IMG/VR virus record: IMGVR_UViG_3300011337_000256
Location: 1-33,112 of that record
DNA length: 33,112 bases
Origin: a virus
Lineage: Duplodnaviria > Caudoviricetes
Direction: 5' to 3' (one strand)
The position numbers and the translations under genes are program-made. Shown here one piece after another: positions 3,132-25,010 of this stretch (within the stretch, counting starts at the first letter, position 1; each line of letters starts with the position of its first letter). A model generated the notes under the pieces. That model searched no databases. It saw nothing but the letters and a program-made list of their open reading frames with translations, and had not been told where the DNA came from.

Positions 3132-3707
3132 ATGAAATATCCAGTTTATTTATTAGAGTTAGACGAAAGTGGAAATGCTCAATATGGCTTACAAGATGTG
3201 GCCTTAGTAGAAAGCCCTGCTTATGAATCTAATTTCTTAAAATTCGACAATCAACATAAAGCATTGTTTGCTATTCAAAACGAAGAAAAGAGAATCATTT
3301 GCGGTGCGGTAATGATACCTGATAAGTTAGTTTATCGAGAAGAAAACGGCAAACCATTCTATGTAGGTGCAACAAAAGAAACCATTTACGAAGCGTCTCA
3401 AAAGTGGGCCAAGGAAAACAGAAACCTTAATGTTAAAGCCACACACGAAGCAGAGGGTAATGTAAATGACGTGTTTATTTTTGAATCATTTGTTACCGAT
3501 GAAAATAGAGTGCAATCGGTTAAGGGTTTTGAGGAATTACCTTATGGTACTTGGTTTATGACAATGAAAATTAATAATGAGGACGTATGGAATAAAGTTA
3601 AACAAGGCGAATTTAATGGGTTCAGTTTAGAGGCTTTATTTAAGTTAAAACCAGTAGAGCCTTTGAATGATGCTGAAATAAAAGCATTGATGAATTTAAT
3701 TGATTAA
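3132..3707 (+). CDS. Prohead maturation protease, XkdF-like (Peptidase_S78_2 type)
   Basis: Motifs VALVESPA, EEKRIICGAVMIPDK, H (ATH), LPYGTWF, W..VK.GEFNGFSLE; lies upstream of scaffold and capsid genes. Confidence 0.85.
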   Translation: MKYPVYLLELDESGNAQYGLQDVALVESPAYESNFLKFDNQHKALFAIQNEEKRIICGAVMIPDKLVYREENGKPFYVGATKETIYEASQKWAKENRNLNVKATHEAEGNVNDVFIFESFVTDENRVQSVKGFEELPYGTWFMTMKINNEDVWNKVKQGEFNGFSLEALFKLKPVEPLNDAEIKALMNLID

Positions 3708-4506: not shown

Positions 4507-5523
4507 ATGGCAATTACTTACAGTCCAATAGAAATTCGCGGTGTAGCCGCTTCTCCAGTAGTGGAGGAAGTCTTATTTGAAAACAAAACTTTATCTGAAG
4601 GCTTAGTTACTTTTGAAGAAGAAGTTAAAAACGAAGTTATCTTTACAGAAGGATCTACTACTGCTACTATGCAAGCATATACAAGCGGTGCGCCTTCAAC
4701 ATCAGGTTCTTTAGATTTATTTGATGTATCTGTAACTCCTACTAAATATTTGTATTACCAAACATTTGACCCAAATACTTTACGTCCTTCAAGATTCAAA
4801 CGTGATATGAAACCGGGTGCATGGGAAACTTTAAGTAATGAATTTGAGCAAGTAGTTATCGGTGGTATGTACTCTAAAAAAATCGCATACGATGCTGAAT
4901 TTCAATTTTGGAGTGGTATCACTTCAGCACAAAAAACAGCTATTGCTGCATTAACTGCTGGTACTTTAAACACTGAAATTGGTGCTGACGAAAAAACAGT
5001 AGCTGCTGCTTTGACTGCTGGTCAATTCAATGGAGTTGTAGCTTCAATGATGTACAATAACTGGAACGCGGCTGGTACTCCAGGTGTAGGTAAACGTATC
5101 AAAGTTGATGGTATCGCTATCACTTCATCTAACATTGCACAAGAATACGCGCGTGTGTATTCTGCTATTCCTGCAACTGTATTAGCTAGCGGAATGCCAG
5201 CATATATCTATGCTCCAAAGTCTCACATGCAGTTAATCAACATTTATAATACTTCTGCAACTTACCGTGATTTATTCAGCGTACAAGGAGAAAAATATTT
5301 CTACAATGGTGTTGAAATTAAATTTGTACCTGTACCTGAAAACGTAATTATTGCGGCTCCAAAAGAACATTTATTTTGGGTTACTGATTTAACTTCTGAC
5401 GTGAATAAATTTGAAGTTAACAAAGTAGCTTTAAACCAAGATTTATTATTCGTGAAACACGTTGGTACAATTGCTGCTTATGTAGCTAACCAAGCGTTCA
5501 ACGTTTTATATTGCGGTTCTTAA
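4507..5523 (+). CDS. Major capsid protein
   Basis: 338 aa, strongly biased codon use typical of high expression, position after protease and scaffold, followed by a terminator; HK97-like features (YNGVEIKFVP). Confidence 0.8.
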   Translation: MAITYSPIEIRGVAASPVVEEVLFENKTLSEGLVTFEEEVKNEVIFTEGSTTATMQAYTSGAPSTSGSLDLFDVSVTPTKYLYYQTFDPNTLRPSRFKRDMKPGAWETLSNEFEQVVIGGMYSKKIAYDAEFQFWSGITSAQKTAIAALTAGTLNTEIGADEKTVAAALTAGQFNGVVASMMYNNWNAAGTPGVGKRIKVDGIAITSSNIAQEYARVYSAIPATVLASGMPAYIYAPKSHMQLINIYNTSATYRDLFSVQGEKYFYNGVEIKFVPVPENVIIAAPKEHLFWVTDLTSDVNKFEVNKVALNQDLLFVKHVGTIAAYVANQAFNVLYCGS

Positions 5524-11913: not shown

Positions 11914-12714
11914 ATGCGAATAGCTAGAGGCATATCAATAGCGAATATAAGCAAGCCAATAAGCACAGCTATTGTGTATGATGCGGATGCGGCGGCTTTC
12001 TTTGCAGCGGCTAGTATTACAGATACTACTCAGAAAAGTGCTGTTAATACATTAGTACTTAGTTTAAAATCAGCTAACATTTGGACTAAAATGAAAGCTC
12101 TTTACCCTGTAGTTGGTGGTGTTGCAAGTTCTCACGCTGTTAATTTGAAAACACCCGGGACTTATAATTTATCATTTGCAACTGGTTGGACACATTCAAG
12201 TACAGGGATGACGCCAAATGGCGCTACTTATGCTAATACTAACTTAACCCAATCAACATCTGGTTTAGATCAGAATAATTGGGGATTCAGTGTGTATAGT
12301 AGAACAAATAAAACAGGTAATTCTGGAGTATCATTTGGGAACGAACAAGCTGGTGGGGTGACTATAATGTACTTAAAAACTGCAACAAATAATTTAGCAT
12401 CTTATATGAATAGTTTCAATATTTATTTTGTTCCAAATACAGATTCAAGAGGTTTTTTTCAATCTATAAGAAATACTTCGACTAGTGTAAAATTAATTAA
12501 AAACAGTACTATCAATAATGGTTCAACTACTTCATCTACTAACCACACCATTCCTTTTTATTTAGCGGCAAATAATTATTATGGGACAGCGGTAGGCTTT
12601 GATAATTGTGAAACTGCCTTCGCTTCAATAGGCAATGGATTAACAGATGCAGAGGCTTCATCATTTTACAACGCAGTTCAAACATTTCAAACAACTTTAG
12701 GAAGACAAGTATAA
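11914..12714 (+). CDS. Virion protein with a putative lectin-like beta-sandwich
   Basis: 266 aa; N-terminal DADA.AFF.AA.IT...W.KMKALYP..GG helix region, beta-rich core, C-terminal FQTTLGRQV. Confidence 0.5.
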   Translation: MRIARGISIANISKPISTAIVYDADAAAFFAAASITDTTQKSAVNTLVLSLKSANIWTKMKALYPVVGGVASSHAVNLKTPGTYNLSFATGWTHSSTGMTPNGATYANTNLTQSTSGLDQNNWGFSVYSRTNKTGNSGVSFGNEQAGGVTIMYLKTATNNLASYMNSFNIYFVPNTDSRGFFQSIRNTSTSVKLIKNSTINNGSTTSSTNHTIPFYLAANNYYGTAVGFDNCETAFASIGNGLTDAEASSFYNAVQTFQTTLGRQV

Positions 12715-13998: not shown

Positions 13999-14491
13999 AT
14001 ATTTATCATTAGGTATATTCGCCATCTTAGTGTTTATTTTACTATTCCAAACATGTGGCAAAGATGAGGTTATTAAGGACCAAAGAATAACCGATACATT
14101 GATAGTAACTAAGCTAGTTAATATCAGTAAAGATAGTTTGGTTATTGATAGCCTATTGAAAGTTAAACAACGTGTTAAGGTAGTGTTTAAGCAAAAGACA
14201 GATAGCATTTACATTGCGGCTCCTGATACTTGCAAAACGTATATTAACATGATTGTAAATAATTGCAACGATTATTTGTCATTGAATGATAGCATCATTG
14301 AACATCAAATGTCGGTTATTAATGAGCAACGTGATTTGTATAGGATTCAAAGGGATTTAATCAATAAACAAAACGATATGTTATATAATGATAGCTTACA
14401 TATTCAACAATTAAATAAAAAAATTAAACGAAAAAATATAACAATTGGCATTATTTCAGCAGTGGGCCTTGGTGCTTTACTTGTAAAATAG
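13985..14491 (+). CDS. Spanin candidate (N-terminal lipoprotein-type signal, coiled coil, C-terminal TM)
   Basis: Hydrophobic N-terminus ending LFQTC; heptad region; C-terminal KKIKRK then ITIGIISAVGLGALLV; last gene of the lysis cassette. Confidence 0.55.
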   Translation: MTLNKYLSLGIFAILVFILLFQTCGKDEVIKDQRITDTLIVTKLVNISKDSLVIDSLLKVKQRVKVVFKQKTDSIYIAAPDTCKTYINMIVNNCNDYLSLNDSIIEHQMSVINEQRDLYRIQRDLINKQNDMLYNDSLHIQQLNKKIKRKNITIGIISAVGLGALLVK

Positions 14492-14536: not shown

Positions 14537-14565
14537 AGGGCGACTTAAAAAATCGCCCTTTTTTT
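14537..14565 (+). terminator. Intrinsic terminator ending the late region
   Basis: AGGGCGA/TCGCCCT stem followed by a T tract. Confidence 0.9.
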
Positions 14566-14635
14566 ATGCGTTATAAAATTAAACGTGTTGATTTTCAATG
14601 AGTTATAAAATAATTGAATATATTTTAAAAATATA

Positions 14636-16785: not shown

Positions 16786-16793
16786 TACTTTTG
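16786..16793 (+). promoter_or_regulatory. Bacteroidota -7 promoter element TACTTTTG
   Basis: Exact TAnnTTTG in an intergenic region; TTTG at 16760-16763. Confidence 0.7.
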
Positions 16794-16796
16794 TAA

Positions 16797-16879
16797 TGTC
16801 GGGTGAGAGCGGCAAACGTAAAACATTAAACATTAAACCTATTGGTTACAACCTCTCACTTGTAGCCAGTAGGTTTTTT
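16797..16879 (+). ncRNA. Structured leader RNA, copy 1 (two hairpins with complementary loops)
   Basis: TGTCG-[GGTGAGAG]-CGGCA, 20-nt A-rich linker, then a 17-bp stem (2 G-U) with loop CCTCTCAC and a T tract. Confidence 0.7.
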
Positions 16880-19999: not shown

Positions 20000-20045
20000 G
20001 TACATTAGGTATAATTTAGGTATAAATTAGGTACATTAGGTATAA
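20000..20045. repeat. Array of four TTAGGTA direct repeats
   Basis: Copies at 20005, 20016, 20027 and 20036; GTACATTAGGTATAA is repeated at 20000 and 20031. Confidence 0.9.
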
Positions 20046-20080
20046 ATCAATTTAACTCATGATAATTAAATAATTATTTG

Positions 20081-20088
20081 TATATTTG
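20081..20088 (+). promoter_or_regulatory. Bacteroidota -7 promoter element TATATTTG
   Basis: Exact TAnnTTTG upstream of the replication operon; no clear -33 element. Confidence 0.65.
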
Positions 20089-20093
20089 CATCT

Positions 20094-20176
20094 GTTGTGT
20101 AGGAGCAACTATTTATAAAAAATTTACAAAAGACCTCTATTGTGCGGAACTCCTACTCCAAACTCTAGAGGTTTTT
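20094..20176 (+). ncRNA. Structured leader RNA, copy 2 (two hairpins with complementary loops)
   Basis: GTTG-[TGTAGGAG]-CAAC, 21-nt AT linker, AGACCTCTA/TAGAGGTTT outer stem, GGA/TCC inner stem, loop ACTCCTAC, T tract. Confidence 0.65.
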
Positions 20177-20188
20177 ACGTTAATAATT

Positions 20189-20383
20189 ATGCCAACAAAA
20201 ACTCAGTTTATTTGCAGTTACGAAAGTACAGATGTATTAGAATTAATACATGATGAAAAAGATTTAATAATTCAATTTAAAGATTTATTAAATATTGATG
20301 ATTTAAGAGAAATTATTTTAAACAAATATGATTGTAAAAAATTAATTTCTGAATTATTAATTATAGAAAAAAAATTAAAATAA
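20189..20383 (+). CDS. Small hypothetical protein (64 aa, MPTKTQF...; track start at TTG 20078 is unlikely)
   Basis: ATG follows the leader RNA; TAATG-coupled to the initiator gene. Confidence 0.6.
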   Translation: MPTKTQFICSYESTDVLELIHDEKDLIIQFKDLLNIDDLREIILNKYDCKKLISELLIIEKKLK

Positions 20384-21153
20384 TGGCTGAAGATAAAAAA
20401 TCATTTTTAATGTATTGTGATTTAATACATACTATTAAAAAAATGCCAGATGATAAAGCTGGTTTATTATTTAAACATTTATTAGCCTATGTAAATGATG
20501 AAAATCCTATTACAGATGACTTATTAATAGAATTAACTTTTGAGCCAATTAAACAACAATTAAAAAGAGATTTAATAAAATGGGAAAATGAAATAATTAA
20601 AAAAGGAGATTCTGGAGCATTAGGAAATCTTAAAAGATGGAATGAAGATTTGTATAAACAAGTGATTAACAAGGAGTTAAGTTTACAAAAAGCTGTTGAA
20701 ATCGCAAAGAGTCGCAAACTATCGCAGTGCGATGAAATTAATCGCACCGAGTCGCAAAGTGTCGCAAACATCGCTGTAAATGATAATGTTAATGTTAATG
20801 TTAATGATATAAATATATCTTTTGATTGTTTTTGGAATCTTTACAATAAAAAGGTTGGTGACAAAAAGAAAATTGAAAATAAATGGAATAAATTAAAAAA
20901 TGAGGATAGACAAAAAATAATTAATACATTGCCAACTTTTTTAAATTCAATAACAGATAAACAGTTTCAACCATTTCCTGAAACGTATTTAAATAATAAA
21001 CGTTGGAATGATGAAATAATTGAAAATCAAAACTCAAATAAAAAACATTATTATTTAAGTAGTCCATTTGGAACTTGGGATGGTCTTTTAACTGAAGATG
21101 AATTTAAAAATAAAACATTAACTAATTACTGGACTTTAATTAAAATAGCATGA
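20383..21153 (+). CDS. Replication initiator (DUF6291-like N-terminus; C-terminal F..FW..Y.KK...P.TYLN..RW.DE domain)
   Basis: KKSFLMY.D...M.D..AG.LF..L..Y start, NVNVN low-complexity linker, internal iterons, upstream of primase-helicase. Confidence 0.75.
   Translation: MAEDKKSFLMYCDLIHTIKKMPDDKAGLLFKHLLAYVNDENPITDDLLIELTFEPIKQQLKRDLIKWENEIIKKGDSGALGNLKRWNEDLYKQVINKELSLQKAVEIAKSRKLSQCDEINRTESQSVANIAVNDNVNVNVNDINISFDCFWNLYNKKVGDKKKIENKWNKLKNEDRQKIINTLPTFLNSITDKQFQPFPETYLNNKRWNDEIIENQNSNKKHYYLSSPFGTWDGLLTEDEFKNKTLTNYWTLIKIA
20701..20815. other. Putative replication origin inside the initiator gene
   Basis: RTCGCA at 20701, 20711, 20721, 20741, 20751, 20761 (10-bp phase), one inverted copy at 20728, then AATGWT repeats and an AT-rich tract. 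Confidence 0.7.
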
Positions 21154-23024
21154 TAAGCGAAATCTCAATAAATAAAGTAAAAGACTCTGCTAAAATTGTT
21201 GATGTCATTTCTGATTATTTAGAACTTAAAAAAAATGGTGCAAATTATATTTGTTTAAGTCCTTTTAGTAATGAAAAAAATCCATCATTTACAGTTAGTC
21301 AATCTAAAAATATATTTAAATGTTTTAGCACAGGTAAAGGAGGTGACTGTATTACATTTTTAATGGAATATAAAAAAATCAATTATATTGATGCTATTAA
21401 ACTTTTAGCTGAAAAATATGTAATAGAGTTAATTGAAGAAAAAAACACCTCAAAACAAAATTATACACGTCCTATATGGAAAAATAATACTATCTTATCT
21501 GATAAGGTTATTAAATGGTTTGAAAATGAAAGAAAAATATCTCAAAACACTTTAAATGATTTAAAAATTAGTGAGGGTATTGAATGGATGCCTAAAAAAA
21601 ATGATTCAAAAGGTCATAATATAAATACTATTCAATTTAATTATTTTATTGATAATAAATTAATTAATACAAAATTTAGAGATTCTTTAAAAATGTTTAA
21701 ACTAGTTTCAGGAGCTGAATTAGTTTTATATAATTTAGATTCTTTAAATGGTTATACAAGTTGTTTTATTACAGAAGGTGAAATTGATGCCTTAACTTTA
21801 CATGAATGTGGTTTTAAAAATGTTATTTCTGTTCCAAATGGAGCAAGTAAAGGAAAAAATAATTTAACCTATTTAGATAATTCAATACAATATCTTGAAC
21901 ATATTAATGAATTTATACTTTGTTTAGATAATGATGAAAATGGTAATAAATTAAAAGATGAACTTGCAAGACGTTTAGGTTTTGAAAATTGTAAAACAGT
22001 TACTTTTAAAGATTGTAAAGACGCAAACGAATGTTTAGTTAAATATGGTAAACAAATAATAATAGATTCAATTAAAGATGCTAAAGAGTTTCCAATAGTT
22101 GGCGTATTTAATTCACATGATATTGAAAATGATATTTTAGATTATTATAATAATGGTTTACCTGAAGGTACTGGAATTAATATGGCTGAAATAGATACTA
22201 ATATTAGATTTCACCAAGGTTATTTAACAATGTTAACTGGAATACCTGGACATGGAAAATCAGAGTTTTTAGATTTTTTATTATGTAGATTAAATTTATC
22301 AGATGATAATTGGAAAACAGCTTATTTTAGTCCTGAAAATCATCCACTTCAATTACATTTTAGTAAACTTGCAGAAAAATTAATAGGAAAATCATTTGAT
22401 AAAAAAAGTAACAATAGATTAAGTCCTATTGATTTAAGAAATGCTATTGATTATTGTAGTGAAAATTTTTATTTTATTAATCCTGAAGAAGATTTTTCAA
22501 TTAATTCTATTTTAAAAAGTGTTAAAGAATTAATTAAACGAAAAGGAATAAAAGCATTTGTTATTGATGCATGGAATAAATTAGACCATAAAAGAGGTAA
22601 TAAAGATAAAAATGATTATATAAGTGAAACTTTAGACATTATTATAAAATTTTGCGAACGTAATTTAATTCATTGTTTTTTAGTTGCACATCCTACAAAA
22701 ATGGGTAAAGATAAAGACGGGAAACCTGAAATACCTAGTTTGTATAATATTTCAGATTCAGCTCATTTTTTTAATAAAACAGCAAATGGCATTTGTGTTT
22801 ATAGAAATTTTGAAACTGGATGTGTAGAAATTCATATTCAGAAAGTAAAATTCAAACATTGGGGGCAAACATCAACAGTACATTTAGCATGGAATAAAGA
22901 TAATGGTCGTTATTATAAAGGTTATCCAAATAATGATAATTGGTTAAACTACGAAAAACCATTACAAAACAATACTAACTTTTTAAATGATATAATTTTT
23001 AATAACGAAGAAACACCATTTTAA
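21150..23024 (+). CDS. Primase-helicase: DnaG-type zinc-binding domain + TOPRIM + SF4 (T7 gp4/Twinkle-like) helicase
   Basis: SPF..EK.PSF.V...FKCFSTGKGGD; ITEGEIDAL; LDND..G; KDANE; TGIPGHGKSEF Walker A; VIDAWN; LVAHP.K; acidic tail EETPF. Confidence 0.92.
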   Translation: MISEISINKVKDSAKIVDVISDYLELKKNGANYICLSPFSNEKNPSFTVSQSKNIFKCFSTGKGGDCITFLMEYKKINYIDAIKLLAEKYVIELIEEKNTSKQNYTRPIWKNNTILSDKVIKWFENERKISQNTLNDLKISEGIEWMPKKNDSKGHNINTIQFNYFIDNKLINTKFRDSLKMFKLVSGAELVLYNLDSLNGYTSCFITEGEIDALTLHECGFKNVISVPNGASKGKNNLTYLDNSIQYLEHINEFILCLDNDENGNKLKDELARRLGFENCKTVTFKDCKDANECLVKYGKQIIIDSIKDAKEFPIVGVFNSHDIENDILDYYNNGLPEGTGINMAEIDTNIRFHQGYLTMLTGIPGHGKSEFLDFLLCRLNLSDDNWKTAYFSPENHPLQLHFSKLAEKLIGKSFDKKSNNRLSPIDLRNAIDYCSENFYFINPEEDFSINSILKSVKELIKRKGIKAFVIDAWNKLDHKRGNKDKNDYISETLDIIIKFCERNLIHCFLVAHPTKMGKDKDGKPEIPSLYNISDSAHFFNKTANGICVYRNFETGCVEIHIQKVKFKHWGQTSTVHLAWNKDNGRYYKGYPNNDNWLNYEKPLQNNTNFLNDIIFNNEETPF

Positions 23025-24037: not shown

Positions 24038-24495
24038 CCCCCCTACAACAACTAACAGAATTAGACTGGCAAATACGATGCAAAGAGTCTAGGATGCCTC
24101 CTGAATATATTGTACGAACGAAGTTTACTGATAAGACAGCAAATTCATTAACTAAGGCTATTGTAAAATGGATTAACCTAAACGGATACCAGGCAGAACG
24201 TATCAGTACTTCGGGACGTTGGGTTGATAATTCTAAGGTTGTTACTGATGTACTTGGAAATCAAAAAAAGATAGGCTCAGGAAAATACATTAAAGGATCG
24301 GGGACTAAGGGGTCTGCGGATATTAGCGCAACTATCAAAGGCAAATCAATTAAGATAGAAGTAAAAATAGGTAAGGATAAGCAATCCGAAGCACAAATAG
24401 AATATCAGAAAGCTATTGAAAAAGCTGGCGGTATTTACTTTATTGCAAAAGATTTTACTTCATTTTATGAATTTTATAGTACTTTAGTACAGTGA
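24034..24495 (+). CDS. VRR-NUC / PD-(D/E)xK nuclease (Holliday-junction-resolvase-like)
   Basis: G.ADI....G....IEVK..KD.QS.AQ...Q..IE.AGG.Y. Confidence 0.8.
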   Translation: MTPLQQLTELDWQIRCKESRMPPEYIVRTKFTDKTANSLTKAIVKWINLNGYQAERISTSGRWVDNSKVVTDVLGNQKKIGSGKYIKGSGTKGSADISATIKGKSIKIEVKIGKDKQSEAQIEYQKAIEKAGGIYFIAKDFTSFYEFYSTLVQ

Positions 24496-25010
24496 CAAAA
24501 CAAGAACAAATAACAGAACTGTTTAAAGACACATCGTTAAAAAACAATGCTCGAAAGTTATGCAACAATCGAGACATCTTTAACGACCTTTTTCAGGAAA
24601 CTTTTATTTATTTGTTGGAGTTACCCGATGAAAAGTTTAACCGAATAAATAACCTTAAGGCTTTCGCATTCACTGTTATGTTTGGTAAGGCAAACAGCCA
24701 GGCCCGAAACTATAACCTAAATGGTAAAGATAATGTTCTATTTGAAATGTCTAATAAGTTCGGAATATTCGACGGCACTAACATAGCTCATAGCGAATAT
24801 AATTACAAGATTGATGAAGACTTCGATAAGGTCATATCATATTTGAACACCGATAATACTATTAAGGAAACGGATGTATATGTTTTATTTGAATCAACAA
24901 ATGATAAGACTTTAAAGGAGCTTTCAAAGGATTTAGATATGAGTTATCATACTATACGATTAAACAGAAAGAAATTAATAAAAAAAATAATTAATAACGT
25001 GGTGTTATGA
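24492..25010 (+). CDS. ECF-like RNA polymerase sigma factor
   Basis: Region-2-like A.KLC.N....DLFQETF..L and ...L.AF.F.V; C-terminal HTH TLKELSKDLDMSYHTIR; last regulator before the late genes. Confidence 0.75.
   Translation: MTKQEQITELFKDTSLKNNARKLCNNRDIFNDLFQETFIYLLELPDEKFNRINNLKAFAFTVMFGKANSQARNYNLNGKDNVLFEMSNKFGIFDGTNIAHSEYNYKIDEDFDKVISYLNTDNTIKETDVYVLFESTNDKTLKELSKDLDMSYHTIRLNRKKLIKKIINNVVL

Follow-up and report, generated by a model that had tools for sequence, protein, structure and literature searches.

The literature that we searched offers no explanation of how Bacteroidota phages working from host-type promoters set the dose and order of the genes for replication, recombination, methylases and homing endonucleases. 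The question arises at a locus where a structured leader lies directly between a promoter and the start codon of a phage replication operon. We find that this leader belongs to a real, uncatalogued family of phage leader RNAs, which is predicted to function as a variant of kiss-on-terminator attenuation and is likely to control the amount of transcription reaching the replication genes. As an element of ~85 nt, it offers a concrete, testable answer to the problem of gene dosing and ordering.

The window, by which we mean the whole stretch of DNA analyzed (33,112 nt), is a complete, circular, Flavobacteriaceae-type phage genome of ~33 kb, based upon a 189-nt direct repeat shared by its termini. 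Comparison with PHROGs and Pfam identified genes for a terminase, a portal protein, ERF, Gp157, MazG, a DUF6291 initiator-like protein, a primase-helicase, a DNA methylase and a sigma-70 region-2 protein, and revealed no integrase in the window. Cultured-phage relatives of the DUF6291 protein are found in Flavobacterium, Cellulophaga and Olleya phages, so the host is presumably a member of the Flavobacteriaceae. No kissing-loop leader follows the first promoter-like box in the early region, at 14632. Just ahead of this box, at 14540-14566, the lysis-region genes end in a strong GC hairpin flanked by runs of A and T. Rfam 15 recognized no family in the window; its sole match, an unrelated chance match to RsaOG at 14483 (E 1.4), sits on this GC hairpin.

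Two copies of the leader occur in the window, and the copy in front of the replication genes (copy 2) extends over 20081-20176 on the plus strand. It opens with a -7 promoter box of the Bacteroidota type, TATATTTG (20081-20088), preceded by a weak -33-like CATG at 20058-20061, as judged by the -33/-7 consensus described for F. johnsoniae (PMC6847099). In that species the start site lies 4-5 nt past the -7 box, a spacing that places the predicted transcription start of copy 2 at 20093-20094. The first base of hairpin 1 is thus predicted to be +1 or +2, and the terminated RNA would be ~85 nt long. By itself the TAnnTTTG box is not enriched in the window (60 seen vs. 59.7 expected). Folding places hairpin 1 (20094-20109) at the predicted 5' end, with a 4-bp stem formed by GTTG (20094-20097) and CAAC (20106-20109) and an 8-nt loop, TGTAGGAG, that contains the 7-nt address GTAGGAG (20099-20105). 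An unpaired, A-rich linker of 21 nt (20110-20130) leads into hairpin 2 (20131-20176), a predicted intrinsic terminator whose stem-loop (20131-20174) is composed of an apical 3-bp stem, two 2x2 internal loops and a lower stem. The 8-nt loop of hairpin 2, ACTCCTAC (20149-20156), carries the complementary address, CTCCTAC, at 20150-20156. A tract of five T residues (20172-20176) follows, giving a length of 83 nt (20094-20176), and the ATG of the first gene lies 12 nt further on at 20189. The promoter, hairpins, loops, linker, T tract, ATG spacing and 83-nt length that the initial annotation had reported for copy 2 were all recovered at their positions. Both the copy 2 leader (fold z = -2.65) and hairpin 2 (z = -3.27) are folded beyond chance. 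Upstream of the promoter on the same strand are four direct repeats, TTAGGTA(T/C)A (20005-20044), with an origin- or operator-like appearance; they are absent from the two closest relatives (L088 and L089), and other tandem repeats occupy the corresponding position in four loci (L095, L097, L128 and L197).

Copy 1 (16786-16879, plus strand) is paralogous to copy 2 and precedes genes for a 103-aa ORF, ERF and Gp157. Its address is GTGAGAG at 16803, with the complement CTCTCAC at 16853. Copies 1 and 2 thus have different letters at positions 3 and 4 of the address, in the two loops alike, just as had been proposed when two compensatory loop changes were noted. A simple terminator scan picks up the terminator of copy 1 and misses the weaker one of copy 2. 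The two addresses were also said to be orthogonal, each gating its own operon. Cross-pairing in the window is indeed weak (-2.8 and -2.4 kcal/mol, vs. -9.3 and -9.2 kcal/mol for the cognate pairs), but selected orthogonality and independent gating of the operons are no more than a possibility: in hand-curated lists, address sharing was seen in 0/32 within-genome pairs from 27 genomes, and addresses are so diverse (distinct in 26 of the 28 lineages not retrieved by their own address) that only ~0.12 sharings would be expected by chance, which makes the zero uninformative. The only other sense-strand copies of the window addresses, at 4736 and 28191, are both inside genes, and no second leader target for either address was found in the window.

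Address-specific scans of IMG/VR returned 61, 26 and 59 loci, and the full architecture of promoter, hairpin, linker, hairpin and T-tract was present in 51/61, 17/26 and 45/59 of them. A reversed-address control retrieved 11 viral loci, none of which has the architecture (0/11, vs. 51/61 for GTAGGAG). An address-blind scan, with address positions 1, 3, 4 and 5 left free, gave at least 120 matches (at least 103 distinct). Among the matches listed, the exact 7-nt complement was found in 36 of 43 with a TA-type promoter and in none of 60 promoter-less matches, and pairing was complete (7/7) in all 30 matches having both promoter and terminator, which represent seven addresses. The loop-loop pairing covaries across the leader family. 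In a 24-row alignment (A2), 97% of kiss cells pair, a count that leans favorable since the rows were picked for clean alignment (12 of the 32 rows of an earlier alignment, A1, were dropped, most of them shifted by MAFFT, and four others were added); two-sided changes occur at five of the seven kiss pairs, and the covariation score was reached by 0/500 shuffles. A first RNA model, made with RNAalifold on A1, contained only four pairs and was dropped. In the GTGAGAC subtype, an eighth position, read by eye, pairs in 26 of the 28 distinct elements listed (as G-C, A-U or C-G). Comparison with shuffled sequence had been proposed as a check, and the family withstood it: a two-hairpin descriptor matched seven times in six real phage genomes or stretches and never in 4.07 Mb of local shuffles, and a looser version had no match in 5.96 Mb of shuffled sequence. 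The paralogous leader-RNA family with compensatory loop changes proposed in the initial annotation is real, conserved and non-coding.

Most aligned copies have one free base and a 7-nt address in each loop, and the apical 3-bp stem is nearly fully paired above a poorly paired hinge. Across 35 lineages the two addresses are separated by a median of 44 nt (range 37-62), and the linker shortens as the terminator arm lengthens (rho -0.78). Part of this anticorrelation follows from the procedure itself, since the searches put bounds on the gap and the stem boundary was set by the analyst. The 7-bp kiss has a median energy of -9.3 kcal/mol. No invariant loop or flank base was found, as no address or flank position exceeds 30/35 lineages. 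The suggested GTRRGAG search pattern does find real members, but the family is wider than the pattern and includes copies of reversed polarity, in which the purine-rich address lies in the terminator loop; pairing is thus what matters, not the letters. Pyrimidine-rich addresses in hairpin 1 were observed at L311, L319, L335, L344, L345, L351, L226 and L395, mostly with an 11-nt linker and a terminator arm of 20-23 nt, the geometry closest to that of guanidine-IV. Each genome has one to four elements, always behind a promoter and with a start codon a few bases on.

Six of the seven cultured Flavobacteriaceae phages examined have the element, each with its own address. In five phages picked by DUF6291 (tooticki9-1 and 11b, covered whole, and Harreka_1, phi13:2 and elemoA_7-9A, covered over 32.6, 30 and 35 kb), the element precedes a replication gene in every case, with five different addresses. 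It lies at the equivalent place in the first 50 kb of phi18:3, before a different replication gene, and is absent from the whole genome of phi38:1, for which a transcriptome has been published. Hosts are available for tooticki9-1, 11b, Harreka_1, phi13:2, phi18:3 and elemoA_7-9A, among them Flavobacterium sp. LMO9 for tooticki9-1, whose element is at 12625, and Cellulophaga baltica for phi13:2 and phi18:3, whose elements are near 3190. Of six viral loci found via DUF6291, four (L088, L089, L090 and L092) have the element. L090 encodes a DUF6291 protein 96% identical to that of the window and a first gene 88% identical, with the address CTAGCAG; at L092 and L100, identity outside the loops is 79-80% and the address is CTGGAAG. 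Close relatives thus retain the scaffold and exchange the address. By eye, L091:9654-9780 shows a variant of three hairpins, the second of them weak and bearing the address, in front of a DUF6291 gene. A different leader is found behind a TAnnTTTG box and before a DUF6291-like gene at L093:8987-9110; its 5' ~15 nt pair with part of a terminator-like hairpin and it has no hairpin 1.

The element is rare in the bacterial genomes searched. Among 401 genomes of one bacterial order, three encode DUF6291, and in one of them it lies on a phage-like contig (G183:C71, 29022-31139; L389 and L390) with two elements, one of them directly before DUF6291; no element was found in the 362 and 1500 nt upstream of the other two DUF6291 genes, a weak negative. 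An RNA model run over 151 genomes of one bacterial family identified only the G183 elements as real among the 26 candidates scored per genome, also a weak negative. BLASTN of the element gave only short chance or promoter matches in phages and none in plasmids. The GTAGGAG pattern had 80 matches over the GTDB collection, none qualifying as an element, and the nine that were folded proved to be long inverted repeats or chance, again a weak negative. Long inverted repeats of the form GTAGGAG...CTCCTAC, unrelated to the leader, were seen in Pseudomonas, Poribacteria, Prevotella and others (L228-L307); we take them to be REP-like.

Behind copy 2 on the plus strand follow a first gene for a 64-aa protein with a predicted PUR/PC4-like fold (20189-20383), the gene for the DUF6291 replication-initiator-like protein (20383-21153; Pfam PF19808, E 5e-19; phrog_270) and that for the DNA primase-helicase (21150-23024; PHROGs and Pfam). 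With copy 1 in front of the ERF operon and copy 2 in front of the replication operon, the earlier description of leaders before two DNA-metabolism operons is borne out. Across the family, 20 of 36 first genes behind an element are DNA-transaction genes (five for methylases or modification, six for homing endonucleases, three initiator-like, and six for primases or helicases) and 16 are of unknown function; PHROGs identified no transporter family among the 36. Many of the short unknown first genes constitute one family of 60-80 aa that is often situated between leader and initiator, and to which the 64-aa protein belongs. In the ESM Atlas, only unnamed viral clusters below 0.9 were matched. When 4317 ORFs were compared all against all, no protein turned up in every element-bearing record; DUF6291 was the widest family (25 records). 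Further downstream, on the same strand as copy 2, the sigma-70 region-2 protein (24492-25010) is ECF-like and a candidate late-gene activator, a role that would place the late programme behind the copy 2 leader.

What the leader does is most readily understood, with modest confidence on our part, as cis attenuation of transcription, in which a co-transcriptional kiss opposes zipping of the terminator. This reading draws directly on the anatomy, covariation, gene context and position, with the element placed directly between promoter and start codon; from these we infer that the leader is transcribed and terminated, which way the switch works, and that it has a trigger. Host RNA polymerase would start at about 20093-20094, and hairpin 1 would fold at once. 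After another ~44 nt the complementary loop would appear on its 3-bp apical stem and could kiss hairpin 1 before the lower terminator stem had zipped. The kissed state would delay or block the terminator, allowing polymerase to enter the genes for the PUR/PC4-like protein, the DUF6291 initiator and the primase-helicase; with no kiss, the ~85-nt RNA would be released. By a rough rod-versus-linker estimate, the kiss and the full stem are sterically incompatible in only 6 of 35 lineages, and in the copy 2 scaffold the reach of the linker is ~1.9 times the rod, so kiss and full terminator could coexist there and the block would be kinetic. Candidate triggers are a kiss-binding protein, Mg2+ or temperature, and polymerase speed. 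Since the address letters are free provided that both loops match, any trigger probably reads shape or timing and not sequence. Neither an invariant ligand-pocket base nor a universal candidate protein was found among the lineages and records compared, and the 7-bp kiss may form without any trigger; the short T tract of copy 2 (T5) likewise tells against attenuation. On a larger scale, we tentatively envisage a phylum-wide, RNA-addressed layer of control in Bacteroidota phages, a doubtful proposal: promoter-proximal terminators would be released by a sequence-free kissing-loop shape that a phage factor reads (possibly the PUR/PC4-like first-gene product), or be throttled in trans by their own terminated leaders, and the 7-nt addresses would define specificity groups, which cassettes for replication, methylases and homing endonucleases would exchange in order to enter or evade the circuit.

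Other readings of the same sequence have to be set against cis attenuation. The 7-mer pair also occurs in long inverted repeats of bacterial genomes, and a TTG at 20078 opens a frame through the window element that appears on the record as a 101-aa gene call, so that the element might be a DNA repeat of the GTAG type (REP/REPIN) or simply coding sequence. Both are highly improbable. In the bacterial repeats whole arms pair, but here there are no long arms pairing along their length, only loops, each on its own hairpin, and the element occurs in one to four copies per genome, always behind a promoter, not in many. The downstream frame is open across the element in only 2 of 33 lineages, and in L090, which has the same 64-aa gene, in-frame stops close it; a 101-aa N-terminal extension was accordingly rejected, and the 64-aa product is itself predicted to fold as a complete domain. 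That the region is non-coding is thus supported, translation from the TTG being unlikely. A leader-peptide attenuator was rejected as well, with no ATG in either window leader and GTG/TTG frames that differ between the copies. The 64-aa protein invites another explanation, namely that the first-gene product binds the purine-rich loop or the linker and autoregulates its leader. Its model (four strands and a C-terminal helix, pLDDT 89.6) superposes best on PURA repeat III (Z 7.5, rmsd 2.3, 58/64 aligned), PUR/PC4 single-strand binders fill 8 of the top 10 rows, and 9 of the 12 family members in the genomes retrieved are directly behind an element. Autoregulation by such a protein nevertheless seems very unlikely. 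All Z scores are under 8, and Foldseek gave no match at E <= 0.001. The family is found in 12 of 54 records (many partial), most members are net acidic, and against a family profile that leaves it out the window protein reaches only E 0.3. A replication-accessory role would be simpler, as for the T5 PC4 homolog named in the title of entry 4bg7. As most element-bearing records lack the family and most of its members are net acidic, we regard the putative PUR/PC4-like protein as a lead, not as the trigger.

Two further alternatives accept the RNA and its terminator and differ in what the kiss does. The kiss might coexist with the finished terminator and compact or protect the RNA or strengthen termination, making the leader a fixed doser or a stand-alone small RNA. 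By the rough estimate above, the linker is long enough for kiss and full stem in 29 of 35 lineages, no trigger is evident, and the downstream nucleases, methylases and initiators are genes perhaps wanted at low dose. However, the same estimate leaves no room for both structures in the six remaining lineages, among them the reversed-polarity subtype with its 11-nt linkers; linkers get shorter, not longer, as stems lengthen; and the element is always a few bases from the start codon. We consider a fixed doser unlikely. The terminated leader might alternatively act in trans on nascent transcripts of its own locus, its free loops capturing a nascent loop in the seconds before the partner of that loop has been transcribed. 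The outcome would be feedback or timing, together with immunity or incompatibility groups defined by address. There is precedent in IsrK and in the P4 CI RNA with seqA/seqC, which act on their own read-through RNA (PMC4825925). Close relatives do differ in address on a common scaffold, hairpins at both ends would stabilize a short RNA, and no address is shared within a genome. Yet that absence of sharing is uninformative, the cis partner is tethered, free leaders could lock as double-kissed dimers, and the window has no other leader target, the extra address copies being intragenic. Action in trans is accordingly also rather improbable, and cis attenuation is the reading that we carry forward.

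The family appears to be new, within the following limits. Against Rfam 15, 20 homologous loci gave eight weak matches, all below the gathering score, and one weak match overlaps an element (psm_mec, E 2.8, at L049). The motif is not named in the available portions of PMC8040213, PMC5737381, PMC10690425, PMC5335546 and two 2026 preprints, and we found no literature description of it; an unnamed model may exist among the clusters of PMC10690425 or bioRxiv 10.64898/2026.10.21.760802. The suggestion that copy 2 is part of an undescribed system is thus upheld as far as Rfam families and the accessible literature extend, with the reservation that models of the PMC10690425 catalogue may cover it.

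Several known systems resemble the leader in part. The lambdoid nut and HK022 put sites are early antitermination sites that occur in two copies, ahead of the recombination and replication operons, right after a host-type promoter. The window leader shares the two copies, their placement before recombination and replication operons and the position directly behind a host-type promoter, but it has no boxA/boxB-like fixed sequence, it contains a terminator, and no N-like protein was found. The pT181-type antisense attenuators and ColE1 RNAI/RNAII with Rop control replication initiators by loop-loop recognition with variable specificity letters. The variable-letter recognition ahead of a replication initiator is common to the phage leader; unlike in those systems, the pairing is within one strand, and a conserved antisense promoter was rejected, as a minus-strand -7-type box lies within 200 nt in 5 of 34 lineages vs. 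28 of 170 background windows. Gifsy-1 IsrK and the P4 CI RNA (seqA/seqC) likewise have a phage promoter followed by a short, terminator-containing leader RNA, which is encoded on the same strand as its target, and read-through leads into replication or antirepressor genes. They act in trans on separate target sites (PMC4825925), whereas here both complementary segments are hairpin loops of one leader and no other target was found in the window.

The nearest parallel is the guanidine-IV riboswitch (GGAM-1/mepA) and its variant Gd4v. In guanidine-IV, a second loop makes contact with the terminator loop, in competition with stem elongation, and read-through results (PMC11611296, PMC7736828). Like the phage leader, these RNAs consist of two hairpins joined by a loop-loop pseudoknot upstream of genes, with a 3' hairpin that is an intrinsic terminator (predicted in our case). 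The scale is also alike: FRET sites beside the guanidine-IV kiss are 43 nt apart (PMC11611296), compared with the 44-nt median here, and by hand count the 95 Lla construct has ~40 nt between loops, a linker of ~10 nt and an arm of ~21 nt (PMC7736828). In guanidine-IV and Gd4v the loop bases are >=97% conserved and bind guanidine, and the RNAs precede SugE/MATE-type exporters, mostly in Firmicutes (PMC7736828, PMC11611296, PMC9788692). The phage family differs in that its kiss, of 7-8 bp, is free to vary (the 28 blind lineages have 26 addresses), in that it precedes DNA-transaction genes, and in that hairpin 1 lies at the predicted transcription start. Because it has no invariant loop base, includes reversed polarity, precedes no sugE/MATE/PnuC-type genes and has no Rfam match, we do not assign it to guanidine-IV or Gd4v. 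The element would instead extend the kiss-on-terminator mechanism of guanidine-IV to a sequence-variable family free of a ligand pocket, and its natural, non-cross-pairing 7-nt addresses would provide a toolkit of transcription attenuators for Bacteroidota.
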